This document shows, one piece after another, positions 3,357-25,228 of a DNA stretch of 42,789 nt. The stretch comes from an uncultured Candidatus Bathyarchaeia archaeon. GTDB taxonomy: Archaea > Thermoproteota > Bathyarchaeia > TCS64. The notes beneath the pieces were generated by a model that searched no databases, was not told the DNA's origin, and was given only the letters and a program-made list of their open reading frames with translations. The stretch covers positions 1-42,789 of the forward strand of contig CAZAKG010000003.1 in assembly GCA_964485755.1 (NCBI GenBank), written 5' to 3'. Position 1 is the first letter of the stretch. The number at the start of each line of letters is the position of its first letter. The position numbers were made by a program, and so were the translations under genes.

Positions 3357-3408
3357 TGGGACAGTAGTGAGGCTGCTCTTCTATAAGTGTCATGATAAAA
3401 AGAGGGGG

Positions 3409-4628: not shown

Positions 4629-4654
4629 GGAGGCTGAAATAGATTGAGGACACT

Positions 4655-7270: not shown

Positions 7271-7996
7271 TCACTCCATGTGCCTGTAGGTTCCATCCGC
7301 CAGCTTCCTGTGGACGACCTCCATGATCTCAGGCGGGGGCACCCTGAACGTGGGGAGCTCACTCTCGCCCTGAGGCGTCCTGGGCACCTCGCCCTTCCTC
7401 CACATGCCCACGGCCTCCGTCATGAGGGTGCCCGCCGTGACCAAGGTCTTCCAGCATAGATGCTCGTAGGTGTCGCCCCTGTGGACCGGTATCGTCCGCT
7501 TGACCACTATGTCGCCCGTGTCTATGTCGGGGTCTATGAAGTGGCATGTGCATCCGATGGGTATATCGTAGTATATGCTCCAGGCGACGCTGGCCGAGCC
7601 CCGGACCTCTGGTAGGAGCCCGGGGTGGCTGTTGAGCATCCCGTCTGGCGGTATCTTGAGGACGCCTCTGCTGATTATCCTGGTGCCTCCGAGGACGCCC
7701 AGGTCCGGCCCAAGCTCCATCAGTATCTCCCTGCACCCCCGCTTGTTGTGGTGGGGCACCTTGTGCCTCTGGACGTCCCTTCCCTCAAGGAGCTGGTTGA
7801 AGGTGGGGGCGACCCTGTGGCCCCTGATGCGTGCGAGGAACTTGTCCCGCTCCTCCTCCGCCACGGGGCCCGTCTCCTCAATAATGGCTGAGGGGACGTG
7901 TCCGGCCTCCATGAGCTGCATCAGCATCTCCCTGCCGTAGGGGTGCTCCTCCAGGACCAGGAAGGCGAAGCTCTTAGTCATTCCTCTAGCTCCCAA
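7271..7996 (-). CDS. Formyltransferase-family protein (Fmt/PurN-like fold).
   Basis: 241 aa. NSHPGLLPEVRGSASVAWSI matches the formyl_trans_N HPSLLPxxRG motif, followed by DTGDIV. Confidence 0.72.
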   Translation of the reverse strand: MGARGMTKSFAFLVLEEHPYGREMLMQLMEAGHVPSAIIEETGPVAEEERDKFLARIRGHRVAPTFNQLLEGRDVQRHKVPHHNKRGCREILMELGPDLGVLGGTRIISRGVLKIPPDGMLNSHPGLLPEVRGSASVAWSIYYDIPIGCTCHFIDPDIDTGDIVVKRTIPVHRGDTYEHLCWKTLVTAGTLMTEAVGMWRKGEVPRTPQGESELPTFRVPPPEIMEVVHRKLADGTYRHME

Positions 7997-8002
7997 GCGG
8001 TC

Positions 8003-8794
8003 CTATAGGAGGGCGTAGCGGAGGCTCTCACCGCACTGGCATGTCCTCTTCTCGGGGATGAGGGGCAGCGCGCTCATGATGAGCTCCCTGAACCTGGCGC
8101 TGTTGCTCCGCATGGTCTCCATCACCTCGTCGCTGGTCACCGGCTTCTCGGCCCACACGTCGTAGTCGGTGACCATGGCTATGGAGACGTAGCAGAGCTC
8201 GGCCTCCCGGGCGAGGATGGCTTCTGGGTGGAGGGTCATGCCTATGATGTCGCAGCCCCACTGCCTGAAGAGCTTGGACTCGGCGCGGGTGCTGAACCGG
8301 GGGCCCTGTACGCAGACGTATGTGCCCGCTGGGTGGACGGGGAACCCGAGCTTCTTGGTGTGCTCTGCGAAGAACTGGTGGAGCTGGGGGCATATGGGGT
8401 CAGCTGATGAGATGTGGCATAGCTGGCCGCCGTCGTAGAAGGTGTCCGGCCTGTCCTTGGTCCTGTCTATGTACTGGTCGGTGATGACGAAGTCCCCCGG
8501 CTTGTAGTCCTCGCGGAGGCTGCCCACTGCGCTGCTGGCCACGACGCGTTTAACGCCCAGGCTCTTGAGGGCCCAGATGTTGGCTCTTGACGGGAGCCTG
8601 TGGGGCGGGATGGTGTGGCCTCTGCCGTGGCGGGGGATGAAGGCGACCCTCTTACCCTTGTAGGTGCCCAGGGTGACCAGGTCGGAGGTGGCCCCGTATG
8701 GGGTGTGGACCTTGACCTCCTGGGCGTCCTCGATGAGCTGGGGGTCGTAGACCCCTGTGCCGCCTATGATGGCTATGTCTGCTCTATGCTCCAT
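8003..8794 (-). CDS. mtnP: S-methyl-5'-thioadenosine phosphorylase.
   Basis: 263 aa. IAIIGGTGVYD, FIPRHGRGHTIPPHRLPSRANIWALKSLGV, and MTLHPEAILAREAELCY. These are classic MTAP/PNP-family motifs. Confidence 0.9.
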   Translation of the reverse strand: MEHRADIAIIGGTGVYDPQLIEDAQEVKVHTPYGATSDLVTLGTYKGKRVAFIPRHGRGHTIPPHRLPSRANIWALKSLGVKRVVASSAVGSLREDYKPGDFVITDQYIDRTKDRPDTFYDGGQLCHISSADPICPQLHQFFAEHTKKLGFPVHPAGTYVCVQGPRFSTRAESKLFRQWGCDIIGMTLHPEAILAREAELCYVSIAMVTDYDVWAEKPVTSDEVMETMRSNSARFRELIMSALPLIPEKRTCQCGESLRYALL

Positions 8795-8877
8795 GCATAA
8801 TCAATGGCTCATACACCATAAATGCTCTACGCCCCCGTTTCGATAAGCTTAAGTCCGCTGGTTCATCCACCTCGGCG

Positions 8878-10098
8878 GTGCCCTTGGCCAAGCAGAGGAA
8901 CTACGCGTACGTGCTGCTCGTCACCATATGCGTCACGTACTTCGTGGAGAACTTCCTCCGCAGCGCAGCCGGGGCTTTGACGCCCATACTCATAGGTGAG
9001 CTGGGGATAAGCCACGGCAGCATGGGGCTCCTCATCTCGGCGTTCTTCTTCGTCTACGGCGTCATGCAGATTCCCAGCGGCATCCTCAGCGACGCCCTGG
9101 GCGCCAGGAAGACGATACTCGGGTTCACGGCCCTCACCGCTGTGGGGGTCTTCCTGTTCTGGCTCAGCAGAAGCTATAGCCTCTTGGGCGCGGCCCAGCT
9201 GATGATAGGTGTCGGGTGCAGCGTATTCTACATCAACGCCGTGAAGCTCATATCCACGTGGTTTCCCCCGGAGAGGAAGGCGACGGCCATCGGCGTCCTC
9301 AGCGCTACCAGCGGCCTGGGCAACTTCGTCGCCTACATGGGGTTCCCTCTGGCTGTGGAGTGGCTCGGGGACTGGAGGCCCCTTTACCTGGTGATGAGCC
9401 TCGTCCTGGTGGTCAACTGGGCCATGAACTTCATGGTGCTGAGGGAGAGGGGCGAGGCCGCGGTGGACGGGCCGCAAAAGCGGAGGCAGCCCATACTGGG
9501 GACGCTGCTCGCCACGGTGACGGACACCCGGCTTCTGCCCTTCATAGCTGGCTACGTCCTGGCCAGCTTCAGCTGGGTGTTCCTCACCTGGCTGCCTCAG
9601 TACCTGATAGACGTCAAGGGCTTCACGTACCTTGACGCGGGGATGGTGGCCAGCGTGGGAAGCATAGCGGGCATACCGGGCTGCATAGTCATAGCGGCGG
9701 TCTCGGACAGGCTGCGGAGGCGTAAGCTGCCCATAGTGGCGTTCTCAGCCGTCTACACTGTTCTACTCGCCGTCTTCCTGGGCCTGCCCGGCGGCCTTCC
9801 CCTCGTCGTCTACATGGCCCTGGGTTCTGGGATGACGTTCACGGTGAGCTTCTGGGTGCTATTCTTCAGCATGGTGCCTGAGACGCTGCCTCCGGAGAGG
9901 GTGGGGATCGGGCTGGGGCTGGTGAACGGCCTGGGCACGGTAGGGTTCAGCGTTGTGGCGCCGCTGTACGGTGGACTCATTGATGCGACTGGCGGGTACG
10001 GGGCGTCCAACTTGGTGCTGCTGGGCGGCGCCGTCGCCATGACGCTCATATTCGCCTTGTTCATCAGGGAGTGCTACGGCAGGGCGCCTGATGGGTGA
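8878..10098 (+). CDS. MFS transporter.
   Basis: 406 aa with about 12 TM helices. GILSDALGARKT is an MFS loop 2-3 motif, with a second ...SDRLRRRK motif in the C-terminal half. Confidence 0.85.
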   Translation: MPLAKQRNYAYVLLVTICVTYFVENFLRSAAGALTPILIGELGISHGSMGLLISAFFFVYGVMQIPSGILSDALGARKTILGFTALTAVGVFLFWLSRSYSLLGAAQLMIGVGCSVFYINAVKLISTWFPPERKATAIGVLSATSGLGNFVAYMGFPLAVEWLGDWRPLYLVMSLVLVVNWAMNFMVLRERGEAAVDGPQKRRQPILGTLLATVTDTRLLPFIAGYVLASFSWVFLTWLPQYLIDVKGFTYLDAGMVASVGSIAGIPGCIVIAAVSDRLRRRKLPIVAFSAVYTVLLAVFLGLPGGLPLVVYMALGSGMTFTVSFWVLFFSMVPETLPPERVGIGLGLVNGLGTVGFSVVAPLYGGLIDATGGYGASNLVLLGGAVAMTLIFALFIRECYGRAPDG

Positions 10099-10128
10099 GC
10101 TTATAACCGCCTCGCCGTTATCAGGTTC

Positions 10129-11148
10129 ATGTCTGTGGAGGACGCCATACGGGCGCTGCCGAAGCTTGAGCAGCACGTCCACATCTTGGGCTCGACGAAG
10201 CCGGAGACGTTCCTGTGGCTCATAAGGGACAGCGGCTCCGGCCTCCCCTACGAGACCCTGGAGGACCTTGAGGCGTTCTACACGTACAGGGACTTCCCCC
10301 ACTTCATAGACATCTACAGCAAGGTGAACTCCACCGTCACCAGGGAGAGCCACTACGAGAGGATCACCTACGAGATGCTGGAGAGCCAGGCCGCCTGCAA
10401 CGTGCGCCACGTGGAGGCCATCTTCTCGGCGTGGGACCACGTCTACAGGGGCCTGGACTACGGGCTGATGGTAGACGCCATCAACAGGGGCGTGAGGAAG
10501 GCGAAGCGGAGGTTCGGCGTATCATGCACCCTGAGGATCGACCTCGTCAGGAACTACGGCCCCGAGGTCGGGATGAAGGTCCTCGACCTCATAGAGGCTA
10601 AGCGGGACAACATACTGGCCATCGACACCGGCGGAAGCGAGCTGGGGTACCCGCCGGCCCCATACAGGGGGTGCTACAGGAGGGCCCGGGAGATGGGGCT
10701 CCACACGGTGGCCCACCAGGGCGAGGGCGCGGGCCCGGACTACGTCTGGGAGTGCGTCGAGGCGCTGAGGCCGGAGCGGATCGGTCACGGCGTGGCCGCG
10801 GGGCGTGACCCTGCGCTGATGAAGGCGATAGCCGGGAAGGGCATAGCCATCGAGTGCTGCCCGGTGAGCAACATCAGGACGGCTGCGGTCCCGTCATGGG
10901 GCGAGCACCCCATCAGGAGATTCATGCAGGCTGGTATCAAGGTGAGCGTCAGCAGCGACGATCCATCCATGTTCGGCACCGACATGAACAACGAGTACCT
11001 TCAGCTCCACAGGCACCTTGGGTTCACTCTGGAGGAGCTGTTCAGGGTGAGCCTGGACTCCGTGGAGACCAGCTTCCTGTCTCCTGAGGAGAAGGAGCGG
11101 ATGATGAGAGGCTTCAAGCGGGACTACGAGCGGCTCAGAGCCGCCTAG
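10129..11148 (+). CDS. add: Adenosine/adenine deaminase family protein.
   Basis: 339 aa. LPKLEQHVHILGS, HQGEGAGP, RIGHGV, CPVSNIRT, and SSDDPSMFGTD. This is the complete adenosine deaminase metal and catalytic motif set. Confidence 0.88.
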   Translation: MSVEDAIRALPKLEQHVHILGSTKPETFLWLIRDSGSGLPYETLEDLEAFYTYRDFPHFIDIYSKVNSTVTRESHYERITYEMLESQAACNVRHVEAIFSAWDHVYRGLDYGLMVDAINRGVRKAKRRFGVSCTLRIDLVRNYGPEVGMKVLDLIEAKRDNILAIDTGGSELGYPPAPYRGCYRRAREMGLHTVAHQGEGAGPDYVWECVEALRPERIGHGVAAGRDPALMKAIAGKGIAIECCPVSNIRTAAVPSWGEHPIRRFMQAGIKVSVSSDDPSMFGTDMNNEYLQLHRHLGFTLEELFRVSLDSVETSFLSPEEKERMMRGFKRDYERLRAA

Positions 11149-11322
11149 TCGGCCATTTGATAAGATGAGATATCCCCGCGATGTCAGGTGGATGGCATCC
11201 AGGGAATTATCTTTATAGACGGGTCGTGCAGCCCGTTCAGTATCGCGGCGTTGAGCAGCAGCGGCGTTATGGCCCACCCACGTCTTTTTATGTATGTCCC
11301 CAGACAATAAACCAGAAACTAT

Positions 11323-11643
11323 TTGATACGTCTACAACCAAAAGAGATTGGAAACTACTGGAAACAACTACAAGCAGAGCTCAGCAGTAACGTAGAACTA
11401 GACACATGGGCACTAAAACCCAGAAGCGGCCGCTTCTACGCGCGAGCCGCCTCAGACCGGATATTCATAGAAGGTAAAGGAATAAAGGGAATACGCACGA
11501 TAGCGTTCCCCGACTTCGAGAAGGTAGCTAAGTACTACAATGACTACATCGACGACGTACCCGGCATCAAACAGAAGATGAGAAACGAAGTCGGGTATAA
11601 CACACAATACATCCTGACGCTCATCCACCACGTTCTAAGATGA
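11323..11643 (+). CDS. Hypothetical protein with atypical, A-rich and T-poor codon usage.
   Basis: 106-aa ORF with a TTG start. Its composition is unlike the neighbouring core genes. No family recognised. Confidence 0.4.
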   Translation: MIRLQPKEIGNYWKQLQAELSSNVELDTWALKPRSGRFYARAASDRIFIEGKGIKGIRTIAFPDFEKVAKYYNDYIDDVPGIKQKMRNEVGYNTQYILTLIHHVLR

Positions 11644-11764
11644 CGTTACACCTGCTCTGTTCTACGGGCCCTGAAGAGAGCTCACCGGAACGAATCAAAC
11701 GCCATATAAACATAAGATAGAACCATAAAAAAATTATTAATCCCGGAAAAAGGTAGTTATATTG

Positions 11765-11809
11765 AGAATTTCAATACGCGTGTTACATGGAATAACAGAA
11801 TTTCAATAC
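11765..11809 (+). repeat. Two copies of a 13-nt direct repeat, agaatttcaatac, 32 nt apart. They flank the 18-mer cgtgttacatggaataac.
   Basis: Exact copies at 11765-11777 and 11797-11809. The enclosed 18-mer (11779-11796) recurs with 2 mismatches at 12291-12308 and partly at 16053-16066. Confidence 0.7.
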
Positions 11810-12023
11810 TCCGCATTAGATTGTTTGAATTAGTCATATGGTTATCAAGTCGAGGCGTGCGCGGGGAGTCATCGGATATTTACCCCATTAATTGATTAGG
11901 TCTAATTACATGATGCTTTTTTTTCATAATATTTGTTGGAACTTCAGTAACAATTGATAATAATATTAAAATAAATGATGTTATAAATATCTAACAAGTC
12001 AAATCTTTAGAGATGATGAAAAC

Positions 12024-12179
12024 TTGAAAGAATGGAAATGTATCGTACTCGGGCACCATAAAGAAATCTCAGAGACAATAAAGGATAACCAAGAAGAGGG
12101 GTGGGAATTACACACCTATCAAGCTACAGGACAGGCGAAACTAACAAACCATTACCTCTTATTCACCCGAGAAAAATAA
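12024..12179 (+). CDS. Possible 51-aa small protein, below the ORF-track cutoff.
   Basis: Hand translation from a TTG start gives KEWKCIVLGHHKEISETIKDNQEEGWELHTYQATGQAKLTNHYLLFTREK. The ...EGWEL... layout loosely recalls DUF4177-type mini-proteins. The call is weak. Confidence 0.25.
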   Translation: MKEWKCIVLGHHKEISETIKDNQEEGWELHTYQATGQAKLTNHYLLFTREK

Positions 12180-12594
12180 TCTAAATGCGCACTTATTTAC
12201 ACATGATTAATTTCTATCATGCGAGTGCATTATCTGTATAATGAAACTATTTAAACTCAATCCCTGTTATAATGCGAGAAATTTAATATCCGTGTCACAT
12301 GGAATAATCCTTTACAACCATTTTGTGTATTTAATGTGGCGTCTTTCTCAGATGCGTGCGAATTATGCCTTTAACGGCGAGGAGGGCGGAGACCTCTACT
12401 GCACTATGAGTAGCACCGGAGGCGGCCTGTAGATGGTAGGGGGTGGCGTCGTCAGCGAGACAACTGTTGCTAGCACCAAAAGAGCTGTCCTGGGTGCCAG
12501 CTCCATCGTCATGGATATTCTGGCCCTGAACCACGGTAGACGGCCCCACGGAACTTGACTGAAAATCTATAAACTCCGTACGACATCTAGAACC

Positions 12595-13395
12595 ATGAAT
12601 TTCTTATACGGTGAACTGACTTGGCCCGAGGTCAGGGACGCATCTAAGGATAGGGTCGTGGTGGTGCCCGTCGGCACCCTGGAGGACCACGGCCCACATC
12701 TCCCCCTCAACACGGATGCCGTGATCGTGGAAACGGTCTGCAGGAAAGCCGTGGAGGGTGACCCAGAGAAGGCCGTCCTGCTTCCGGTCCAAACACACGG
12801 ATACAGTCCACACCACATGGACTTCCCCGGCACGATCACCATCAGGGGCACCGTCTTCCTGGAGTACATGCTGGACATAGTGAGGAGCCTCGCCCACCAC
12901 GGCTTCAGAAGAATACTTCTCGTCAACGGCCACGGCAGCAACTCCGCCTGGCTTGAGAACGTGGCGCGCCTGGCCATCGTCGAGATGCCGGGCATCCTGT
13001 GCGGCACCCTGAACTGGTGGGCCATACCCGAGGTGGTTGAGAGCGTGACGTCGATGAGGGACTCTGAGCGGGGCGGGACGAGCCACGCCTGCGAGCTGGA
13101 GACTTCGCTGATGCTGGCGATTAGACCCGACTTGGTGAAGATGGATAGGGCAGTGAAGGAGCTCAGCCGCGGCTCAGGCAGATACTTCCCCGCCTGGGAC
13201 TTCTACTATCCTTCCGGCCCGGTGAGAATGATGAAGTACTGGAGTACGCTGAGCGAAACCGGCGTCATGGGTGATCCGACTGTAGCTACCGTGGAGAAGG
13301 GTGAGGCCTGGCTGGCTGCAGCAGCCGAAGGTCTGAAGGGCATCATAGAGGAGTTCGGGGGCATAGACGTTGCGGGAAGGGTCGATCACCACTAG
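12595..13395 (+). CDS. Creatininase-family amidohydrolase, possibly an archaeal ArfB-type formamide hydrolase.
   Basis: 266 aa. VVPVGTLEDHGPHLPLNTD, LVNGHGSN, and GGTSHACELETS. These are creatininase-fold metal ligands. Confidence 0.85.
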   Translation: MNFLYGELTWPEVRDASKDRVVVVPVGTLEDHGPHLPLNTDAVIVETVCRKAVEGDPEKAVLLPVQTHGYSPHHMDFPGTITIRGTVFLEYMLDIVRSLAHHGFRRILLVNGHGSNSAWLENVARLAIVEMPGILCGTLNWWAIPEVVESVTSMRDSERGGTSHACELETSLMLAIRPDLVKMDRAVKELSRGSGRYFPAWDFYYPSGPVRMMKYWSTLSETGVMGDPTVATVEKGEAWLAAAAEGLKGIIEEFGGIDVAGRVDHH

Positions 13396-13667
13396 CGCAC
13401 AGTAACGCGTCTAGTTCATTACGATATTTGCTGAGTCCAACTTCTTTTCTGTTTTGTTGACATGTCTTTTAACTGTTTCATGGATATGCTGGGTATGTAG
13501 TAGGTTCCGGACCTCGTTTTTCTTATCTTCGCCCTCATTAAACCATCTAGTAGTATTTTAGGTAAAAATGATAAAAACTTGTCTTAGGATCAAAACACCG
13601 TCTTTTTTATTCCGATGTTTCTTTACAGGTAGGATACCCCCAAATACGATTGTTATAATCTAGTATC

Positions 13668-14261
13668 CTAGTTTTTTGGATCAAATATTTTTTTAAAGTA
13701 TTTTACCCTTTGATATTTGTCCATAATTTTAGCGTTCATAGAAAATTCCAAGAATGTTTTATATTCCTCACTTTCTTCCTGAGTCAATGCACTATATTGT
13801 ACTCCTAATACGGCAAGTGTATGATAAATAAAAGACCAAAGAGCTGAAACGCCTTGGGTTAATTCACCGAGTTCTTCTTTTGAGAACAGTTTGGATGCTA
13901 GTATACCTTTTTCTTCATCTCCATAAATTGATGTTTCATGAATTATTTTCAAGTGTTTACTGTTTGCCTTTATCCATGATTCAAAGGGTGGCCATTCTTC
14001 TTGTTTAGCCCAAGGTAATACTTGAAATAGCTTTTCACTAACTAGATGGAGGTTTTTAGCTGCATCATGATCTCTAGGGTACGGTAGATCAAGCATAAGG
14101 TAGAGAGATTTACAACTCAGTTCGAAACAATGTTGGAGAGCTTCAATTGCTCCATGGATATCGTTTTGGTTTTCACGAATTTTAAATGAACGATAGAAAC
14201 ATATTTTTGACTCAAAGAACCAAGCTTTTCCAAGGTCAAAGGATTCTCTGTTAAATTCCAT
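13668..14261 (-). CDS. HEPN-domain-like protein (PF05168-like helical fold). The assignment is tentative.
   Basis: 197 aa. AIEALQHCFELSCKSLYLMLDLPYPRDHDAAKNL resembles the HEPN helix-2/3 signature (...A.E.alKalL...g...p.tHdl..L). An R-x6-H (RENQNDIH) lies near the N-terminus. The expected C-terminal RYP-type motif is degenerate (SIYGD). Confidence 0.5.
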   Translation of the reverse strand: MEFNRESFDLGKAWFFESKICFYRSFKIRENQNDIHGAIEALQHCFELSCKSLYLMLDLPYPRDHDAAKNLHLVSEKLFQVLPWAKQEEWPPFESWIKANSKHLKIIHETSIYGDEEKGILASKLFSKEELGELTQGVSALWSFIYHTLAVLGVQYSALTQEESEEYKTFLEFSMNAKIMDKYQRVKYFKKIFDPKN

Positions 14262-14285
14262 TATGATTCATATTGATGGAGTAGC

Positions 14286-14310
14286 TAGATACCTTATTTA
14301 TTTACCTGTA
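14286..14310. promoter_or_regulatory. Shared AT-rich core of the 66-bp divergent intergenic region between the two HEPN-like genes.
   Basis: ttatttatttacc lies about 28 nt upstream of the ATG at 14328. Its reverse complement lies about 30-35 nt upstream of the minus-strand ATG at 14261. Confidence 0.3.
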
Positions 14311-14327
14311 AATATTTATTACAATAC

Positions 14328-14861
14328 ATGCCAAGGACAATTCCTCATGCTGATTATAATGAAGGCATTCGGCTATGTAGAAAAAATGCCAAAAGCCTTA
14401 CAATAAAAGCTCGTAACGCCTTTGAAAAAGGATGTTTTCATGCAGCTTATCTTCTAGCTATCGCTGCTCTTGAAGAAGTCGGCAAAGCAACTGTAATTAT
14501 CAAATATTGGAATAATGAAAACATATCTTATGAAAAATATAAGAAAGAGATATGCAATCATGAACTAAAAACTACTTTAGCAATCACATTGATAGATGAG
14601 AATCTAATAGAACAATTTTCTGTAGGGCCTCGAGAACATATAGAAATAATATTGGATGAAAATCGTCGAGATACATTAGTTGAAACGCGAACTAGAAGTA
14701 TTTATGTAGATTATAATTTTAAGGAAAAGAAATGGGTATATCCCTTAGAAAAAATGGATGAATTAGCTAGTACTGCAATTAGAGAATCTAGACAAGCCCT
14801 GAGCTTGTTCGGTAGGGAGTTAAAACATAAAGGAATCGAGATACCCGAAAACACGAAATAA
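14328..14861 (+). CDS. AbiV-like (HEPN-superfamily abortive-infection family) protein. The assignment is tentative.
   Basis: 177 aa. The N-terminal helical hairpin ...CRKNAKSLTIKARNAFEKGCFHAAYLLAIAALEEVGKA..., then NHELK, then TRSIYVDY, matches my recollection of the AbiV family layout (A..LA..A.EE.GK / H..K / YVD). No canonical Rx4-6H was found. Confidence 0.5.
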   Translation: MPRTIPHADYNEGIRLCRKNAKSLTIKARNAFEKGCFHAAYLLAIAALEEVGKATVIIKYWNNENISYEKYKKEICNHELKTTLAITLIDENLIEQFSVGPREHIEIILDENRRDTLVETRTRSIYVDYNFKEKKWVYPLEKMDELASTAIRESRQALSLFGRELKHKGIEIPENTK

Positions 14862-14995
14862 GTTTTTACTAGGAAAAGGTAGAAGATTGTCTTGCAGGCA
14901 TAATAGTTAATACTTAGGGCGCGCGCGCCATCTTTTAATTCATCTGCTTAAGATTATTAACCACTTGTGAGCATTAATCCTTTTTTTTTAGACTT

Positions 14996-15886
14996 TTAGT
15001 TTTTCAATTTGAGATAAAATTGTTTAGGATTGAATACACCAGCACAGATATCGCAATAACCCTTTAATTTATCACCAAGTGTAATTTTCCAAATAATAGA
15101 TGAAAGAAAATTTTCGAAGATTTCTTGTTTTTGTATAAAATCTTTTTCCAGTTTAATAATTTGTTCAATTCCTGTAATAATTTCATTAGTATCAATTATA
15201 CTCTCAATAAATTGTTGAACAGAGCCAACGTTCTGTTGATTTGTACTTTTAGATAATGCGTGCCCCCAGCTACCAAAGTTAAGAAAATATTGTTTTCCAC
15301 CGCCAGGAAGTCCAGTATCTACTATTGTTGGTTCCCAGCCAGGCCATTTTACTTCAAACCCTTGACTTCTATTTCGTGCTTCATCAAAAATTAAATTAGC
15401 AACCAGATCAGGTCTAAAATAATCTCTTGGTTCTATACTACCGCTTTTCCAATACCAAATAGAAAAATCTTTATGATGTAGTTTTTGTTCAGCATTTTTA
15501 CGTATCTTATCTTTAAAATCTGATTCTTTCATATTTCGTATACAATTTGATTCAAGCAGGTCATTCCAACTTTTCCATACATCAGAATAACCTGATTCCA
15601 TATGACTTTGAATGAATTGGTGAAATTTAATTTCACTAAAATCACCTAACTTTTTTGGGATGAACCTAGAGTCAGTATGACTATACTCGGCACCAATTTG
15701 ACAAAGTTTTTTAAATTTACCATTCCAATCTTTCAATGCGTTCTCGTTTAATTTTTCTGCATGGTCTCGTAATTTTTGATTCCTTTGAACTAGAATATGA
15801 TTTATTAGATATGTTACTGTACCGCTAATTATTGTGGTGATTAAAATGCTGGCTAAAGATACTTCCCAGTTTAAAGTTAAACTCAT
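14996..15886 (-). CDS. Orphan protein with one N-terminal transmembrane helix. Function unknown.
   Basis: 296-aa ORF in AT-rich DNA, where long ORFs are unlikely by chance. TM segment: VSLASILITTIISGTVTYLINHIL. The C-terminus has a CDIC pair. No family recognised. Confidence 0.7.
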   Translation of the reverse strand: MSLTLNWEVSLASILITTIISGTVTYLINHILVQRNQKLRDHAEKLNENALKDWNGKFKKLCQIGAEYSHTDSRFIPKKLGDFSEIKFHQFIQSHMESGYSDVWKSWNDLLESNCIRNMKESDFKDKIRKNAEQKLHHKDFSIWYWKSGSIEPRDYFRPDLVANLIFDEARNRSQGFEVKWPGWEPTIVDTGLPGGGKQYFLNFGSWGHALSKSTNQQNVGSVQQFIESIIDTNEIITGIEQIIKLEKDFIQKQEIFENFLSSIIWKITLGDKLKGYCDICAGVFNPKQFYLKLKN

Positions 15887-16249
15887 AATTAAATTTAATA
15901 GATTTTAAAAAATAAATAACTATCTATTATTATTCTACCTTTCTCCCGCACGCCATTAAAGTTATGAGTAAGCTAAGAATAAAGGTTCTGAGTCTATGAT
16001 GAAGACAATAAATTTTTATAAGACAAGAAAGAGCACTGAAATCTTCCACCTTTTACATGGAACAACATACCATCACCTTTCACCAGATGAGAGATAATCT
16101 GAGGATAAGATTACACCCAAGGAAGGGGGCACAGTTTAACCCGGCTGTGATAAAAATCGTAAACCTGCGCTGAACCGATGCACCCTGTCGCAGGCTTGAT
16201 GAAAACAGTTACTAGATAGACAATTAGTTGCATTTATCGAGGGAGCCGC

Positions 16250-16882
16250 ATGAGAATCGTCATCTTCGGGGCAACCGGCGCCACAGGCAGACAACTCATA
16301 CAACAGGCAATCGCAGCCGGCCACCAGGTCGTGGCCTACGCCCGCGACCCCTCAAAGATCGACGCCGACAGCGAACGCCTAACCGTCGTGAAGGGCGAGC
16401 TAACCGACGAGGCGTCAATCGAAAAAGCGGTAGACGGCGCGGACGCCGTGATCAGCCTCCTCGGACCCAGAGGAGGCTCCAACCAGAAACCACTCACACG
16501 CGGCACACAGAACATCGTCAAGGCCATGAAGAACAGCGGAGTCAGGAGACTCATCGCCTCATCCACCCTGAGCGTGAGGGACCCGGCGGACAAACCCAGC
16601 CCGACGGTCAGCCTCCTCATAAACATCATAAAGACCACGATGCACGCCGCCTACGAGGACATCACAGGGGCCGCGGAGACGGTGCGCGGCTCCGGCCTCG
16701 ACTGGACCATCGCCAGGGTGGCCACGCTGAACAACGGCCCGAAGACCGGGGAAGTCAGGGCCGGGTACGTGGGCACAGGCCAGGTCGGCCTAGCCATCAG
16801 CCGAGTCGACCTCGCCGCCTTCATGCTCAACCAGGTGGAGGACCGCAGATACCTGAGGCAGGCACCCGCGGTCAGCAACTGA
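16250..16882 (+). CDS. NAD(P)H-binding oxidoreductase (atypical SDR, NmrA / flavin-reductase-like).
   Basis: 210 aa. MRIVIFGATGATGRQLIQQAIAAGHQVVAYARDPSKI is a Rossmann GxxGxxG N-terminus typical of the NAD(P)-bd_dom family. Confidence 0.85.
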   Translation: MRIVIFGATGATGRQLIQQAIAAGHQVVAYARDPSKIDADSERLTVVKGELTDEASIEKAVDGADAVISLLGPRGGSNQKPLTRGTQNIVKAMKNSGVRRLIASSTLSVRDPADKPSPTVSLLINIIKTTMHAAYEDITGAAETVRGSGLDWTIARVATLNNGPKTGEVRAGYVGTGQVGLAISRVDLAAFMLNQVEDRRYLRQAPAVSN

Positions 16883-17011
16883 GACGGGCCCCCGGGACGC
16901 CGCCCCCCTTACCCAACCTTAGCTAAATTCAACCCAGAAAAAAACCACATTCTTCCACGCAGCTGTCAGGACACCGCCGAACAGCGGACACCCCGCAGAC
17001 ACCAATCACCA

Positions 17012-17235
17012 CCTAAAGACCCAGAAAAAGGCCCCACTCCAAGAAACAAGCCCGAAAACGGTGAATCATGATGACGACGACTACACACCCCTCCCCCTAC
17101 CCATGCACGCAACGACAAACCAAGACGACCAGCCCCAGCAACCACAAATTCCCCTTATTACAAGTAGCACGCAACAAACCCGCCAACCCTTAAGTAGCCC
17201 CCAACAAACAAGAAACCACACCCCCACAGTGAACA
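17012..17235 (+). repeat. Copy A of a roughly 220-250 bp A/C-rich repeat, ending a few nt before the GTG start of the PHP gene.
   Basis: Shares long exact runs with the reverse complement of 24983-25228: cctaaagaccc, ggtgaatc, gactacacaccc, tgcacgcaacgacaaaccaag (21 nt) and agtagcacgcaacaaacc (18 nt), all in the same order. Confidence 0.85.
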
Positions 17236-17238
17236 AAC

Positions 17239-17898
17239 GTGAAGCTCAGACTAGACCTACACATCCACACAGAACACTCACCAGACGGCTTCAACACCCC
17301 CAAAGACATCACCACCCAACTAAAGAAACAAGACCTAGACGGCTACGCCGTCACAGACCACGACACCCTCACCGGCATCCAAGACGCAACAGCCAACAAC
17401 GACAACCTGATCGTGATACCCGGCGTAGAGATCACAGCACACGGAGCCCACATAATAGCCCTCCAACCCACAGAGCCCATACCCCAGAACCTCAGCGTAT
17501 CCGAGACCGTGGACATCATCCACGCCCAAGGAGCCACAGCCATACTCGCCCACCCATACGGACTACCCAGAAGCTGGATCTCCATGAGACACACCAGAGA
17601 CGCCAAGCTCGACGCCGTGGAGGTCTGCAACGCGGCCCAGATCCCATACGGCTACATCAGAGACCTGAACGAAGACCTAGCCAGAAGACTCAGCCTACCA
17701 CAGACAGGAGGAAGCGACTCACACATCCCCGAAACCATCGGCAGAGCCTACACAGAGGTAGAGGCAGAGAACACAGACCCGGACGCCATCATAAAAGCCA
17801 TAAAGAGAGGCGCAACCAGCCCCCACGGCTCAGGCACCAAGATCACAGAGAGACTAGCCAAACTACTAAAAAAGAAAAAGAGGAAGAACGAGGCTTAA
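17239..17898 (+). CDS. PHP-domain metal-dependent phosphoesterase.
   Basis: 219 aa with a GTG start. LDLHIHTEHSPDG, VTDHDT, AHPY, and GGSDSH. This is the PHP ligand pattern. The sense strand is extremely T-poor. Confidence 0.8.
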   Translation: MKLRLDLHIHTEHSPDGFNTPKDITTQLKKQDLDGYAVTDHDTLTGIQDATANNDNLIVIPGVEITAHGAHIIALQPTEPIPQNLSVSETVDIIHAQGATAILAHPYGLPRSWISMRHTRDAKLDAVEVCNAAQIPYGYIRDLNEDLARRLSLPQTGGSDSHIPETIGRAYTEVEAENTDPDAIIKAIKRGATSPHGSGTKITERLAKLLKKKKRKNEA

Positions 17899-18152
17899 CT
17901 CTTCCAGCTGGACTCCATGTCATAGAGGTCCACACCAAGGTCGTAGCGGACCTCAGGCCCCGCGAAGGGCTCCATGTTAAACAGCTTAACCTCCTCCAAC
18001 TCCAAGCCTCCGAGCCGCCGGCGGGGCCTCACACCTATGACTGTGAGCGCACTGTGGCCCAAGTCGGCGCGCGAACGCTCAAGCCCCTCCACGTCTAGCT
18101 CTTCAAGGGTCCAGTTAACGGCCCTCTCCATCAGAACCATGTCCCTACTCAC
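17895..18152 (-). CDS. Hypothetical protein.
   Basis: 85-aa ORF convergent with the PHP gene, overlapping its stop by 4 nt. No family recognised. Confidence 0.35.
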   Translation of the reverse strand: MSRDMVLMERAVNWTLEELDVEGLERSRADLGHSALTVIGVRPRRRLGGLELEEVKLFNMEPFAGPEVRYDLGVDLYDMESSWKS

Positions 18153-18595
18153 TCCCCCATTCCGCCAATCAGACTTATTATCCTACACACACCAGCTTTG
18201 TCTCATTTAGGCGTGTGCATCGGCGTTGCTACTGGAATATGTGATAAATCTAATAACATCTGGGAATGGCGGTACAATCATTATTTACACGGAAAGGTCA
18301 AGTTGCCATCATTTATGGAGAACAAATTATATTACTTTCATTTCATGAGAGCAACCAATCAAAGTAAACCTCGTAACACACCCCTCGATAATGACTCAAA
18401 ACAGTAAAAAAATGACGAAAAAGCGACCTCAATTAATAGAAAAAAATCAATGGTTTACGCTTAGGCAGCATAACCTAATTTAAATCCATCGACGAAAAAT
18501 GGAAGGCTCCACGAACCCAAGAAACGCAAACATATAAAAACCGTCTCTTTCGCACCGTTTAATTACCGCCAAACCAACCACATGGAGAGCATCCG

Positions 18596-19870
18596 ATGCC
18601 GAGCGTCTACATAAAAGCCTACGGCTGCAGCGCCAACACTGCGGACGCCGAGATAGCCAAAGGGGTGCTCACAGAGAACGGCTACACGATGGTCAACAGC
18701 CAACGCGCATCAGACCTCAACATGCTGGTGACGTGCATCGTCAAGACCCCCACGGAGCAGAAGATCACCAAGCAGATCCGGCAGCTGTCCTTCACCGGCA
18801 CACCCCTCATCGTCGCAGGGTGCATGCCAAAGGCTATGAAGGACCACGTTGAGGCGGTTGCCCCAGGTGCCAGCATGGTTGGCCCGGACGATCTGGGACG
18901 CGTCGTCGAGGCGGTGGCCAGGACTCTGGAGGGTGAACGCGTCGTGTACGTGGACGGGGCGCCCACCGACAGGACGTGTCTCCCCAGGGTCAGAGCGAAC
19001 AGGCTGGTCCATATTGCCCCGGTGTGCACGGGCTGCCTGGGCAACTGCAGCTACTGCATAGTGAAGTATGCGAGGGGGCGCCTCCACTCGTTCCCAGCCG
19101 AGCACATAGTGCAAGATGTCGAGGCGGCTGTCAGGGACGGGTGCAGGGAGGTCTGGGTCACGGCCGAGGACACGGCGGCATACAGAGACGGCGAAAAGCG
19201 TCTCCCCCAGCTACTTGACATGATATCCTCGGTTGGCGGAGACTTCAAGGTGAGGGTGGGGATGATGACCCCCAACCAGGCCCTGCCCATACTGGACGAC
19301 CTGGTGGACGCCTACTCAAGCGACAAGGTCTACAAGTTCCTCCACGTGCCCATCCAGTCCGGCAACGACGAGGTCCTCAGAGCCATGAGGAGGAGGTACA
19401 CCGTCGCAGACTTCAAGGCAATCATAGACAGGTTCCGCGAAGCCTACCCCACGATGGGCGTGTCGACAGACATCATATGCGGCTTCCCCGGGGAAACCCG
19501 CGAACAGTTTAAGGACTCCGTGGCGCTCGTAGGTTGGTTGCAGCCCGATGTCCTCAACATATCTAGGTTCTGGGAGAGGCCCGGCACGGAGGCGGCGGAC
19601 ATGCCGGGTAAGCTGCACGGCAGGGACACCAAGACGCGGTCAAGGGCTCTCACAAACCTGTGGAAGGGGCTGGCTGTGAAGGCCAGCGAGAGGTGGCTCG
19701 AGTGGGAAGGCGAAATACTCCTCACAGAGAAAGGTAAAGGGTCGAGCAAGGTGGGACGCAACTACGCGTACAAGGCCGTGGCGGTGAACACGGAGGCCGA
19801 GCTGGGAGAAACCATACGGGTGAAGGTGACCGGCGCCGGAGTGGGGTTCCTGAAGGCCAAGGCAGTATAG
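18596..19870 (+). CDS. mtaB: Radical-SAM methylthiotransferase, archaeal/eukaryotic MtaB (CDKAL1-like) type (tRNA ms2t6A37).
   Basis: 424 aa. The UPF0004 N-domain (YIKAYGCSANTADAE), the radical-SAM cluster CTGCLGNCSYCIVKYARG, and a C-terminal TRAM-like segment. Confidence 0.88.
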   Translation: MPSVYIKAYGCSANTADAEIAKGVLTENGYTMVNSQRASDLNMLVTCIVKTPTEQKITKQIRQLSFTGTPLIVAGCMPKAMKDHVEAVAPGASMVGPDDLGRVVEAVARTLEGERVVYVDGAPTDRTCLPRVRANRLVHIAPVCTGCLGNCSYCIVKYARGRLHSFPAEHIVQDVEAAVRDGCREVWVTAEDTAAYRDGEKRLPQLLDMISSVGGDFKVRVGMMTPNQALPILDDLVDAYSSDKVYKFLHVPIQSGNDEVLRAMRRRYTVADFKAIIDRFREAYPTMGVSTDIICGFPGETREQFKDSVALVGWLQPDVLNISRFWERPGTEAADMPGKLHGRDTKTRSRALTNLWKGLAVKASERWLEWEGEILLTEKGKGSSKVGRNYAYKAVAVNTEAELGETIRVKVTGAGVGFLKAKAV

Positions 19871-21811: not shown

Positions 21812-23692
21812 TTAATGTCTCAGCCCGTTGACGCCAAAGACGATGGCTATCAGTGCTAGGGCCATGACGGCTATGTTGCCCACCATGTACGTCGTTGCCT
21901 TGGCCTGCTCCACCACGGCGTCGTTGACCTGCACGACGCTCTCGATGTCGGTCGTGGGCAGGAGGTTGGTGAGTGAGGCTGTGTAGACCCCGTTACCCTG
22001 GTACGAGCAGGGCAGGCCGTTCACCACGACCTGGGCGCCGTCCACGGGGGAGTTGTCGGTCTCGTACCTGACGGTCAGGGTCACCTGCACCATGCCGGGT
22101 ATCAGCTGGTTCTCGGTGTGCTCCACCTCGACTGAGTCGAAGTAGTAGGTTCCCTCGGAGCAGGTGAAGCCCTTCAGACCGTACAGGTTGTCTGTTACCT
22201 CGATCACTCTGTATGTTTCGGAGCCGAGTTCGGATGAGAACTCCTTGTCCAGCCTGTATGACCCAGTGAACGGCTCATGGTCGTAGGAGTAGTACGCGTT
22301 CACCTCGGGGCTGCTCTTGGTGCCCAGTATGACCCTCTCCGACGGCGAATCCACATCAAGAGCCACCTGGTCCCAGATCACCTTACACTTGTTGTAGCTC
22401 ACCGAGGTGATGCCGTGTTGACCTGGCTCGACGCCTGTAACCTCGAAGGTGAAGTCCCCCACAGCATCCATGCTGTGGCTGCGAGCGTTAAGCCTCACCA
22501 TGGACGGGTCCAGGGGCCGCCCATCGTAGGCGTAGCGTGCCGAGACCTCCACGTCAATGCTCTCGCCCAGGTCCACCCTGTCGTCCTCGACCGATAGGTC
22601 GACCTGCACCTGGTCCCAGATCATCGGCACGGTGTTTGCCTCGAAGGCGCTCAGGAAGTAGACCATGTCGCTGACCCTTACGACCCTGACGTTGGCTGAC
22701 CCGGGGGTCTCCAGCACAATGGGGTTGAAGTAGATGTCTCCGCTAAACTCCTGCCCGTCGTAGGCGTGGTGAGCCCTGTAGGCCAGGGGGGCCACCTCTC
22801 CCACGTTTATCCTCTCGTCCAGGGCCTCGACCTCAACTATTATCTTGTCGTAGATAGCCTCCACGACGTTGCACGTGAACGCCGTGACGCCGTTCCTCTC
22901 GTCGTCTATCGACTTCACAGTGAACCTGTACTTGCCCACCTCTCCCTTGGTTAGAGTGTCGTTCAGCTCAACGGTGCCTATGAAGGGCGTGGTGTCGTAC
23001 TTGTAGTGGGCCGTGTACGAGATGCTGGCCTCCTCGCCCACGTCGTAGCGGCGCTTATCGCTGTACAGCTGGATCACTACGGTGTCCCATGTGATCTTCA
23101 CAGTGTCGGCCTCGAAGCATTGTATCCCATTGATTGGGTCCGTGATGTAGTCCACGGTGATGCTGTGTTTGCCCACCTTTGTGTAGGGGCCCGTGTGGTT
23201 GAATATGACTTCACCCTTGAATGTCTCGAAGTTGAAGGCGTAGTAGGCGTACCACACGATGGGGGGCTCCTCGCCTACGTTCACCCTCTCGTACTCGGCG
23301 TGCATCTGGACGATGACCTTGTCGAAGACGCATGTCTCCGTCTCGCAGTCCATCTGGAATGAGCGTAGGGTTCCGCCTGACCTCACCGAGCCTATGGTGT
23401 AGTGTCTGTAGGCGAGCTCGGTTGATGTGTCTGTGATCATGTACCAGCCGTTGCCCCAGTCGCTGCACGTGTGACCATCGACGGTGACCGTGGCTCCGGT
23501 GACTGGGGACCTGGTGCTGGTCCAGACCAGCCTGTATCCAACCGTGATCTGGGTGCCTACGTCGACGCGGTCCTTGCTGATGTAGCTCTGGGTGACGGAT
23601 ATCTCGGCGTCTGCCCGTGCGGGCGGTGCGCTGACGGCTAGTAGCAGTACGGCCGCTAATATCACTAGTTTGGGGATGGCTGCTGGGGGCAT
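21812..23692 (-). CDS. Secreted, C-terminally membrane-anchored surface protein built from about 7 tandem beta-sandwich-like repeats.
   Basis: 626 aa. Signal peptide MPPAAIPKLVILAAVLLLAVSAPPARADA and C-terminal TM helix NIAVMALALIAIVFGV. An ~85-90 aa unit of the form (W/Y/F)D.V.[IV]......R[VIY][ND][VL]GE....Y.A.Y.YD...F.G recurs. Confidence 0.8.
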   Translation of the reverse strand: MPPAAIPKLVILAAVLLLAVSAPPARADAEISVTQSYISKDRVDVGTQITVGYRLVWTSTRSPVTGATVTVDGHTCSDWGNGWYMITDTSTELAYRHYTIGSVRSGGTLRSFQMDCETETCVFDKVIVQMHAEYERVNVGEEPPIVWYAYYAFNFETFKGEVIFNHTGPYTKVGKHSITVDYITDPINGIQCFEADTVKITWDTVVIQLYSDKRRYDVGEEASISYTAHYKYDTTPFIGTVELNDTLTKGEVGKYRFTVKSIDDERNGVTAFTCNVVEAIYDKIIVEVEALDERINVGEVAPLAYRAHHAYDGQEFSGDIYFNPIVLETPGSANVRVVRVSDMVYFLSAFEANTVPMIWDQVQVDLSVEDDRVDLGESIDVEVSARYAYDGRPLDPSMVRLNARSHSMDAVGDFTFEVTGVEPGQHGITSVSYNKCKVIWDQVALDVDSPSERVILGTKSSPEVNAYYSYDHEPFTGSYRLDKEFSSELGSETYRVIEVTDNLYGLKGFTCSEGTYYFDSVEVEHTENQLIPGMVQVTLTVRYETDNSPVDGAQVVVNGLPCSYQGNGVYTASLTNLLPTTDIESVVQVNDAVVEQAKATTYMVGNIAVMALALIAIVFGVNGLRH

Positions 23693-23803
23693 ATGTACTC
23701 TTTTTATCGGGCTTTTCCTATAATGATTCGGAAACTTGGATCAGTAGCTGAAGGTTGTTGTCACTGGTATGTAACGGAAAGATGGTTGGGTGATATGGAT
23801 CGG

Positions 23804-24979: not shown

Positions 24980-24982
24980 GGG

Positions 24983-25228
24983 TATGTGGTTTGTTGTGGG
25001 GGTTTTACGGTTTGCGGTAGGTTTGTTGCGTGCTACTCGCAATTCCAGGAATTTGGGGTGGCTGGGGTTTGTACCCAGTGGGTGGGTATAAGCGTTTTTT
25101 GGGCTGGTTGTCCGGTTTTCCTTGGTTTGTCGTTGCGTGCAGGGTGGGGGGGTGTGTAGTCACCGCCGCCACGATTCACCTTTTTTAGGCTTGTTTTGTG
25201 GAATGGGGGCTTTTTCAGGGTCTTTAGG
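24983..25228 (-). repeat. Copy B of the A/C-rich repeat, inverted relative to copy A, ending just before the aminotransferase start codon.
   Basis: The reverse complement aligns with 17012-17235 (see copy A). It carries an extra internal insertion of about 35 nt (around 25070-25125) and many transition differences. Confidence 0.85.

Follow-up and report, generated by a model that had tools for sequence, protein, structure and literature searches.

Results

Composition and gene content of the islet

The stretch of DNA analysed in this study, termed the window (42,789 nucleotides of contig CAZAKG010000003.1 from an uncultured Candidatus Bathyarchaeia archaeon), contains an AT-rich islet (13396..16130, not assigned to a strand), which is flanked by two GC-rich housekeeping genes and of which 74% is coding. 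Its G+C content of 32.8% compares with 59.5% in the remainder of the window, and the drop, with its onset directly after the stop of the creatininase gene at position 13395 and its end at about 16150-16200, bears out the sharp fall between this stop and about 16130 that had been described in a first-pass annotation. The islet encompasses three genes, of which A (13668..14261, minus strand) encodes a divergent HEPN-like protein of 197 aa from a PF05168-related family, B (14328..14861, plus strand) an AbiV-family HEPN protein of 177 aa and C (14996..15886, minus strand) a predicted membrane-anchored protein of 296 aa from an undescribed family. A and B are divergently transcribed across a 66-bp spacer, at the coordinates already annotated, and B and C are convergent. 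GC3 amounts to 0.20-0.26 in all three genes, whereas values of 0.78-0.82 are reached by the creatininase and NAD-binding genes on either side. The longest stop-to-stop ORF in 1000 shuffles of the islet comprised 175 aa (mean 84) as opposed to 302 aa in the real sequence, where the frames around the remaining two genes are free of stops over 199 and 190 codons, thus corroborating the view that three intact ORFs of this length are improbable by chance.

On its left side, the islet is bordered by a creatininase-family gene (12595..13395, plus strand; PF02633, E 1.2e-72), whose best genome matches are Bathyarchaeia MAGs, and on its right side by a gene encoding an NAD(P)H-binding, NmrA-like protein (16250..16882, plus strand; PF13460, E 4.5e-47), both representing housekeeping genes of the host. 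Since the flanking genes have their nearest genomic relatives in Bathyarchaeia MAGs, including L025, which shares 92-93% DNA identity with positions 7902-11274 and 12521-13107 of the window, the host was correctly recognised as a high-GC archaeon. There are no further defence genes among the immediate neighbours of the islet, and it is adjoined, as noted before, by no MNT, Cas, ATPase or methylase gene.

The composition of the islet looks foreign, in line with the origin that had been proposed for it. Since no relative with an empty site was found, with the contig of L025 stopping within the creatininase gene and other Bathyarchaeia loci being non-syntenic, we infer its insertion from composition only. 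Neither flanking direct repeats nor att-type repeats, an adjacent tRNA, an integrase or a Rep gene were detected at the islet, and a 14-nt imperfect inverted repeat near both of its ends was judged to be a product of chance. The slot next to it (11275-12520) is replaced relative to the 92-93% identical genome L025.

Two non-coding features were identified upon reading of the sequence. The A/T-rich spacer of 66 bp between A and B (14262..14327, no strand) presumably contains the promoters of both genes, and shows no conservation with the region upstream of the B homologue in L010. Between the convergent genes B and C, a perfect 12-nt GC palindrome, GGCGCGCGCGCC (14918..14929, no strand), is followed by a T-run and constitutes the only GC-rich spot of the islet, which may mark a terminator or a junction. 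A scan with Rfam returned tRNA only and no RNA family upstream of B, and scans for sigma-70 promoters and terminators, with models that are not applicable to archaea, remained at background level.

Gene A belongs to a HEPN-like family

The family of A comprises 24 members, with 23 homologues at 41-79% identity. The protein encoded in the window scores 18.8 bits against Pfam PF05168, which is under the gathering cut-off of 22 bits, and the same profile is matched by all 18 family members that were scanned or aligned (best E 5.1e-7), five members of the family carrying a precomputed PF05168 call. Its AlphaFold model is helical (pLDDT 85.9) and retrieves in Foldseek the HEPN entries 4nqf, 1ufb, 1o3u, 1wol, 3o10 and 2hsb with weak E-values of 0.27-2.6 and TM-scores of 0.5-0.63 on the target and 0.32-0.46 on the query. 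A search of PDB sequences with the family profile gave nothing significant, and the same is true for P0024. The HEPN-like character assigned to A in the first-pass annotation is thus supported at the level of the family.

The R-x6-H signature that had been ascribed to the protein in the same context did not withstand closer inspection. The sole match to the Rx4-6H motif, whose definition we have adopted together with the residue roles in AbiV from a study of the lactococcal protein (bioRxiv 10.1101/2024.05.05.592566), is R29..H36, which is located between helices 1 and 2 and whose arginine is found in nine of 18 members. No conserved Rx4-6H was found at the end of helix 3, where its expected position is occupied by residues 108-115 (HETSIYGD; 13917..13940, minus strand), a segment without arginine that contains the invariant residues H108, S111, Y113, G114 and D115 and thus holds H108-x4-Y113-G-D instead. 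Three further invariant residues, Y61, P62 and H65, are found in residues 61-66 (YPRDHD; 14064..14081, minus strand) within the loop that follows the second long helix, and H65 is a possible counterpart, by analogy, of the 'alternative histidine' that was described for AF0298-like HEPN proteins and AbiV (PMC3710099). An S-[IL]-Y-x-D segment common to A and B hinted at A being a distant paralogue of AbiV, an idea that was dropped since the comparison of both families in hhalign yielded a probability of 0.1.

Gene B is a divergent member of the AbiV family

Judged by its profile matches, B is a clear, divergent member of the AbiV family. It was detected with models from three HMM libraries, PF18728 (63.6 bits, cut-off 27.1), TIGR04498 (70.2 bits, cut-off 27) and the AbiV model of PADLOC (E 5.7e-13), which far exceeds the curated cut-offs and upholds the initial assignment. 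A profile of B and P0027 matches the chains 9bj5/9bj7 of the AbiV crystal structures marginally (E 0.05-0.06); B alone gave nothing significant against PDB sequences, and a tblastn search against plasmids no match. Among archaea, a Bathyarchaeales MAG was previously reported to contain AbiV (PMC13477220).

The segment 49-EEVGK-53 of B aligns to the EEVGK of AbiV, with E50 and K53 corresponding to E67 and K70, which form the most conserved dimer contacts (bioRxiv 10.1101/2024.05.05.592566). In a profile alignment, residues 76-82 (CNHELKT; 14553..14573, plus strand) correspond to 91-RNHKSKH-97 of lactococcal AbiV, where R91 is substituted by C76 and the second histidine, H97, by T82, while the N-H in between is retained. 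Both substituted residues are needed for rRNA cleavage by the lactococcal protein (bioRxiv 10.1101/2024.05.05.592566), and an Rx4-6H motif is absent throughout the sequences of B and P0027. Since the arginine and the histidine are, according to the authors of the AbiV study, not strictly conserved in the family (bioRxiv 10.1101/2024.05.05.592566), the missing motif weakens the claim of an RNase and not that of family membership.

Gene C defines an undescribed family with exchanged N-termini

The description of C as an orphan membrane protein, consistent with a word-indexed homologue search that found nothing, was overturned by an exhaustive HMMER search, which identified 57 distant full-length relatives at 20-33% identity. 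C matches no entry in Pfam, NCBIfam and PADLOC and no PHROG in a meaningful way, and its confident AlphaFold model (pLDDT 92.7) has no structural analogue in PDB and BFVD. An N-terminal transmembrane helix is predicted at residues ~10-32 (15791..15859, minus strand; Kyte-Doolittle maximum 1.74 at residue 10), as is the case in 45 of the 58 proteins of the family with C of the window among them. In an alignment of 30 sequences, H42, H95 and a CxxC motif (CDIC, residues 278-281; 15044..15055, minus strand) are invariant and constitute a candidate zinc site.

Two relatives carry a different domain in place of the membrane helix. The N-terminus of P0051 contains the segment FLRNPPSHR and matches genes annotated as 'TIGR02391 family protein' (E 1e-9 to 4e-8), a family that we take to be Ymh. 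A survey of HEPN proteins includes Ymh (PF09509) among the HEPN families that possess the conserved motif (PMC3710099). In P0049, the N-terminus matches the C-terminal domains of plasmid proteins whose genes adjoin restriction and integrase genes, and its profile finds in the PDB, below threshold, Rcl/DNPH1 (E 0.24-2.1), MilB (1.2) and the TIR-SAVED protein Cap12 (0.8), so that the domain is possibly NDT/TIR-like; neither N-terminus gave a significant match against PDB sequences. The exchange of the membrane helix for a Ymh-type HEPN or another domain suggests that the conserved part of the family would act as a sensor domain with swappable effectors.

Homologues of the three genes occur separately

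Co-occurrence was investigated by searching the six-frame ORFs of all 108 retrieved loci, which mostly consist of short contigs (1-6 kb), for matches to the A, B and C profiles in hmmsearch. Beyond the window, the comparison covered six contexts for A, nine for C and only one for B, and none of the 108 loci except the window holds two of the families. The arrangement of the trio was thus never seen elsewhere in this sample of mostly short contigs, which speaks against the proposal that it forms a new effector/sensor/membrane-partner system.

Homologues of A with 55-79% identity are found alone in six different neighbourhoods. These include a defence island (L007) with NsnA-like (5.5e-34), PDC-S33 and BglII genes and an integrase, a locus with Mrr and HNH neighbours (L004) and one with VapBC and Rep (L001). 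Where the contigs are GC-rich, the homologues stand out once more by their low G+C (0.34 vs 0.62-0.65), and no neighbour from an MNT/NTase family is present in either the window or the six other contexts. The only close homologue of B (64%) has no A gene within 380 nt upstream. Homologues of C are found alone in nine neighbourhoods without a member of a HEPN family next to them and are mostly AT-rich genes, two of them within GC-rich contigs (L012, L014). The one in L014 adjoins a tyrosine integrase and a P-loop ATPase, the one in L108 is located two genes away from a SIR2_2 gene, and another, with host-like G+C, resides between genes for proline dehydrogenase and an Fe-alcohol dehydrogenase. 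The families of A and C have no relatives in IMG/VR and neither A, B nor C has a convincing match in PHROGs, which makes any link to viruses indirect.

Discussion

The islet described in this study combines three genes whose families occur separately in all other contexts examined and we thus consider it reasonably probable that it is a small horizontally acquired patchwork of independently mobile defence- or toxin-type cargo genes rather than one system. By analogy to its lactococcal counterpart and in light of the retained residues of the EEVGK interface, B would dimerise and halt translation upon infection by binding or cutting RNA. With the catalytic arginine and histidine of the lactococcal enzyme missing, it would have to rely on a non-canonical active site. 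A belongs to a separate HEPN-like family that travels alone, with invariant His, Tyr and Asp residues replacing the classical Rx4-6H. Its product probably serves as a further toxin or Abi-type effector directed at RNA, or else constitutes a derivative with altered catalysis. Since neither protein retains the canonical motif, RNase activity is uncertain for both.

The predicted features of C are those of a membrane-anchored cytoplasmic protein carrying a conserved cluster of two histidines and a CxxC motif. Since its membrane helix is in relatives exchanged for a Ymh-type HEPN or another globular domain, C would most likely be a stand-alone sensor-plus-effector protein with the helix serving as effector. 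A more far-reaching proposal, which we advance tentatively and hold to be rather doubtful, is that C represents an undescribed single-protein family of the abortive-infection type, composed of an analogue-less, probably zinc-stabilised sensor and an exchangeable N-terminal effector, which might act together with neighbouring HEPN-fold genes.

Different readings of the islet have to be weighed against these separate occurrences. The proximity of A and B, whose divergent arrangement across 66 bp is typical of co-regulated pairs, could reflect one functional unit with or without C, such as a toxin/antitoxin-like HEPN heterodimer in which one protein holds back the other or senses on its behalf, expressed from a shared 66-bp promoter region and with C as membrane partner. 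Both folds work as dimers and lactococcal AbiV requires a neutralising partner encoded immediately upstream (bioRxiv 10.1101/2024.05.05.592566), a place that is here taken by A, and the fusion of the C domain to a HEPN domain in P0051 provides a Rosetta-stone-type hint of cooperation between this domain and HEPN effectors. Such a unit is nevertheless quite unlikely, in view of homologues of A (55-79%) that have neither B nor C nearby in six contexts, the closest homologue of B that lacks an upstream A, the homologues of C without HEPN-family neighbour in nine contexts and a profile-profile comparison of the A and B families that gave no match. A weak or facultative linkage may have escaped notice, since most of the compared contigs are short (1-6 kb) and B has a single further context.

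The foreign, AT-rich composition, the replaced slot at 11275-12520 and the presence of integrases, a rolling-circle Rep, a P-loop FtsK/HerA-like ATPase and a primase-like gene adjoining homologues of A and C would also be expected if the islet were what is left of an integrated plasmid or provirus after decay, with its genes conferring addiction, superinfection exclusion or anti-defence to the element instead of immunity to the host. We regard this as unlikely for an islet that contains no integrase, Rep, att-type direct repeats or adjacent tRNA, and whose genes A and C are without viral relatives in IMG/VR and convincing PHROG matches. It is very unlikely that the genes have no part in defence at all and instead serve in RNA processing or nucleotide binding by inactive HEPN folds and as a membrane zinc protein, with the low G+C resulting from recent transfer. 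The lack of the canonical Rx4-6H in A and B, the housekeeping genes flanking the islet and the homologue of C with host-like G+C between two dehydrogenase genes would agree with such roles, but the score of B far above curated AbiV cut-offs, the frequent restriction, toxin-antitoxin or integrase genes next to homologues of A, the exchange of N-termini for HEPN-type modules in the family of C and the patchy distribution and foreign composition all argue against them.

The patchwork interpretation has consequences for the investigation of defence in Bathyarchaeia, which are among the most abundant archaea of sediments and whose defence systems are known almost only through automated annotation. 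It directs attention to a Bathyarchaeia gene of the AbiV family whose product is devoid of the residues with demonstrated catalytic function in the single AbiV that has been studied. Since B also has no obvious place for an RNA antitoxin, one has to ask by which mechanism distant AbiV proteins act and what restrains them. It also introduces two uncharacterised families, one HEPN-like with an H...Y motif and the other predicted to be membrane-anchored, with conserved His and Cys residues and swappable N-terminal modules, both of which form AT-rich cargo of archaeal genomes and offer cheap candidates for functional screening. With the concept of a new three-gene system not being upheld, effort on co-expression designs can be saved.

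Among known systems, AbiV of Lactococcus cremoris MG1363 is the closest to B. It consists of the HEPN RNase AbiV1 and the upstream antitoxin RNA abiV2 (bioRxiv 10.1101/2024.05.05.592566; PDB 9bj5/9bj6/9bj7). B belongs to the same class of small proteins of ~180-200 aa, aligns to the sequence of the crystal structure across residues 15-129 and retains the EEVGK segment, the N-H of the motif segment and an R-S-x-Y-x-D segment. It differs in its archaeal host, in the replacement of R91 and H97 by C76 and T82 and in a sequence similarity that is marginal (E 0.05), and an upstream RNA gene of the same orientation would hardly find room and left no trace in Rfam or in conservation with L010, with 66 bp separating B from A on the opposite strand.

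The family of A resembles PF05168 HEPN proteins, including those of the AF0298-like HEPN-T type (2hsb, 1o3u, 1wol, 1ufb, 4nqf), in the profile matches of its members and, weakly, in its helical model, and it shares with the AF0298/AbiV group an invariant histidine (H65) located N-terminal to the motif position (PMC3710099). In contrast to PF05168-type proteins, A is not accompanied by an MNT nucleotidyltransferase in any of its seven contexts, its motif contains H108...Y113 in place of a basic residue and its C-terminus is extended by about 60 helical residues. For C, the closest parallel is found in single-protein defence genes whose N-terminal effectors are exchangeable, such as the fusion series of AbiJ-NTD and AbiTii (PMC3710099). 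Although C differs in having a constant domain without a match among described families and solved folds, and although fusions are represented by two examples only, its organisation follows the same principle, with a constant C-terminal domain being combined with a predicted transmembrane helix (45 of 58 proteins), a Ymh-type HEPN (P0051) or a globular domain (P0049).

Composition and genomic setting of the islet

The drop in composition described in the first-pass annotation is evident in our analysis, with a G+C content of 32.8% in the AT-rich islet (13396 to about 16150) compared to a window average of about 60%, and a GC3 of 0.20–0.26 in its genes compared to 0.78–0.82 in the flanking creatininase (12595–13395) and NAD(P)H-binding (16250–16882) genes. 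The three long reading frames noticed at that stage, encoding the HEPN-like A (13668–14261, minus strand, 197 aa), the AbiV-family protein B (14328–14861, plus strand, 177 aa) and the membrane-anchored C (14996–15886, minus strand, 296 aa), are located as described and account for 74% of the islet. Since the longest stop-free frame among 1000 islet shuffles measured 175 aa (mean 84), all three exceed the length expected by chance, and the presence of relatives with conserved columns in each case indicates that they are real genes. A and B are divergent and separated by 66 bp, B and C convergent with a spacer of 134 bp. A perfect 12-nt palindrome, GGCGCGCGCGCC (14918–14929), followed by a T-run, is the sole GC-rich spot of the islet and is positioned in the region separating B and C; it could be either a terminator hairpin or a seam joining two separately acquired pieces. 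A 14-nt imperfect inverted repeat (86%, 13465–13478 and 16203–16216) near both islet ends is probably due to chance.

The surrounding genes are of housekeeping character, encoding adenosine deaminase, creatininase, NmrA-like and PHP-domain proteins, a MiaB-like radical-SAM enzyme and an M81 peptidase, and neither a tRNA, an integrase nor a flanking direct repeat was found at the islet. Among species-representative genomes, the best matches of the creatininase gene are Bathyarchaeia MAGs. A syntenic Bathyarchaeia relative (L025, DASWLJ010000375) shares 92–93% DNA identity with window positions 7902–11274 and 12521–13107 in conserved gene order, its contig ending within the creatininase gene and thus before the islet position. 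Between adenosine deaminase and creatininase, a second AT-rich islet (11275–12520) includes a direct repeat of 32 nt (11764–11795 and 12276–12307, 84%). In L025, the same slot (3383–5407) is occupied by two different, less AT-rich genes, coding for a 234-aa NADP oxidoreductase-like protein and a 406-aa aminotransferase, which therefore marks it as a replacement hot spot. Other short patches of low G+C (<42%) are found amid GC-rich genes at 18141–18620, 25961–26800 and 37601–38000, one of which adjoins the sole tRNA gene of the window (tRNA-Arg CCT, 26900–26977, minus strand). The composition is strongly strand-asymmetric at 16900–18000 (+), where an A+C-rich, G/T-poor sequence covering the PHP-domain gene, in which 21 nt are repeated (16932 and 17019), displays an AT skew of about +0.5 and a GC skew of about -0.48 on the plus strand, a pattern that is mirrored at 23500–25500 (-).

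Families of the three proteins

The earlier assignment of A to the HEPN proteins holds for its family more than for the single protein. The match of A itself to PF05168 (HEPN; 18.8 bits, E 0.0019) is below the gathering score of 22, whereas all 18 aligned family members match this profile (best E 5.1e-7), with a precomputed call in five of the 23 relatives, which share 41–79% identity. A confident AlphaFold model from the family alignment (pLDDT 85.9) is mainly helical with a short beta-hairpin. Its comparison to the PDB by Foldseek gave no significant match, the six HEPN entries returned (4nqf, 1ufb, 1o3u, 1wol, 3o10, 2hsb) showing non-significant E-values of 0.27–2.6 and a TM on target of 0.47–0.63. 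A divergent HEPN-like fold is thus supported at family level, which falls short of proof. The R-x6-H sequence noted initially (R29..H36) can be dismissed as catalytic motif, since R29 is retained in only 9 of 18 sequences and since the segment resides in the loop joining the first two helices of the model. Invariant residues are instead found in the second helix (H36, E40, Q43, H44, E47, K51), in the following loop (Y61, P62, H65) and at the usual Rx4-6H position (H108, S111, Y113, G114, D115). No A-family member matched PADLOC models, and no relationship to the B family was found in a profile-profile comparison.

The identification of B as AbiV-family protein is confirmed by scores far above the curated cut-offs for PF18728 (63.6 bits, cut-off 27.1) and TIGR04498 (70.2 bits, cut-off 27) and by the PADLOC AbiV model (E 5.7e-13). 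Its single close relative in a collection of 5.8 billion proteins (P0027, 64% identity) is encoded on a 942-bp contig, and a profile of both sequences reaches the lactococcal AbiV crystal chains 9bj5/9bj7 at E 0.05–0.06. In the alignment to lactococcal AbiV, B retains EEVGK, whose E67 and K70 are the most conserved dimer contacts (bioRxiv 10.1101/2024.05.05.592566). AbiV residues 91-RNHKSKH-97 align with C76-N-H-E-L-K-T82 of B, preserving the Asn-His of the motif segment, and a motif scan detected no Rx4-6H in the whole of B or P0027. In AbiV, the mutants R91A and R91A/H97A have lost rRNA cleavage, and neither R nor H is strictly conserved over the family (bioRxiv 10.1101/2024.05.05.592566). 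An alternative histidine was proposed for AbiV and AF0298-like HEPN proteins in an earlier survey (PMC3710099). B is thus an AbiV-family member of uncertain chemistry. The 66-bp spacer preceding B shows no conservation with the upstream region of P0027 and no match in Rfam.

C, previously labelled an orphan and without relative in a word-indexed search, turns out to have 57 relatives of 20–33% identity, most of them full length at about 280 aa, when 1.84 billion cluster representatives are searched exhaustively with HMMER. The family has no match in Pfam, NCBIfam or PADLOC and no meaningful one in PHROG, and its very confident AlphaFold model (pLDDT 92.7, 30-sequence alignment) has no analogue in the PDB and BFVD (best TM on query about 0.2). 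Its invariant residues H42, H95, W107, G276, C278 and C281 possibly form a zinc site. An N-terminal hydrophobic helix is found in 45 of 58 family proteins including C, and the positively charged segment that follows it would place most of the protein in the cytoplasm. In two relatives, the helix is replaced. In P0051 (491 aa), the N-terminal region contains FLRNPPSHR and matches an unannotated Ralstonia plasmid (E 4e-10) and 'TIGR02391 family protein' genes of Streptomyces plasmids (E 1e-9 to 4e-8), which we take to be the Ymh family. Ymh (PF09509) is listed as a HEPN family with conserved motif (PMC3710099). P0049 (401 aa) carries an N-terminal domain about 160 aa long, which is similar, at E-values as low as 3e-20, to C-terminal domains of hypothetical proteins encoded on plasmids, in some cases beside restriction or integrase genes. 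Its pattern may resemble nucleoside deoxyribosyltransferase/TIR-like domains, a candidate label for a fold class to which its profile gave only sub-threshold hints in the PDB.

Genomic contexts of homologues

Outside the window, six contexts were gathered for A, one for B and nine for C, mostly on short contigs. Homologues of A are found near VapBC, DEAD helicase, Rep and PRiA4-like genes (L001-3, gene G+C 0.34 within flanks of 0.62–0.65), with Mrr-like and HNH genes (L004-6), with NsnA-like (5.5e-34), PDC-S33, BglII and integrase genes (L007-8), with function-unknown neighbours and a Cys_rich_CPCC gene (L009), with small ORFs, response-regulator and DUF211 genes (L095-97), and ahead of a Trypsin_2-Endonuclease_NS fusion (L098-100). 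The latter, a 625-aa protein encoded on the strand of the A homologue (L098 1240–3117, likewise L099 and L100), is of unusual protease-nuclease architecture and weakly matches PADLOC RT-Protease_XI. In the B context (L010), the 380 nt upstream hold no A-like ORF. Homologues of C adjoin a primase-like gene (L012), a tyrosine integrase and a P-loop ATPase (L014) or two function-unknown proteins (L102/103), are near a radical-SAM/SPASM gene (L105/106), or are flanked on a 220-kb contig by proline dehydrogenase and Fe-alcohol dehydrogenase, with SIR2_2 two genes off (L108/109); on the short contigs L011, L013, L101 and L104 the neighbours are uninformative. The L013 homologue (372–1094) is split over two frames (372–791, 795–1094), indicating a frameshift or pseudogene. 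The arrangement in L014 (1377–5100) resembles an integrated archaeal element that carries AT-rich cargo: behind a GC-rich block (about 65%) with the FtsK/HerA-like ATPase and the integrase, the sequence turns AT-rich and holds the C-family gene along with a gene for a 180-aa membrane protein.

Discussion

The most probable explanation for these observations is that the islet was acquired horizontally as a cargo patch, in which an AbiV-family gene would be joined by two genes of mobile, solo defence- or toxin-like families. For A and C, this likeness is founded on their AT-rich cargo character, the company of integrase, restriction and toxin-antitoxin genes and the swapping of effector domains; the activities of all three proteins are putative. 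The first-pass annotation had instead proposed a single new defence module of A, B and C. Such a functional unit, with or without C, would be consistent with the divergent arrangement of A and B at a distance of 66 bp, with the known need of AbiV for an upstream neutraliser and with the existence of a fusion between the C domain and HEPN. However, when A, B and C profiles were run by hmmsearch against the six-frame ORFs of 108 fetched loci and the window, no locus but the window carried two of the families. This distribution contradicts an obligate link among all three genes or between A and B, whereas, with contigs that are mostly short and a single other context of B, a looser association may exist. 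A new three-gene system is thus not supported, and we regard a functional unit as unlikely. A decayed mobile-element remnant, whose genes would serve the element itself, is slightly less improbable, and non-defence roles of the three proteins are the least probable of all.

The C family is the more interesting part, combining a fold not described so far with a His/Cys cluster and with N-terminal modules that can be exchanged, a HEPN domain among them. The A family, where H...Y replaces R...H, is of lesser interest. B adds another member to an already known family, AbiV having been reported previously in a Bathyarchaeales MAG by automated annotation (PMC13477220). Its setting is nevertheless distinct from that of the Lactococcus protein, since the latter is neutralised by an RNA encoded immediately upstream, whereas B is preceded by only 66 bp, beyond which gene A follows on the other strand.
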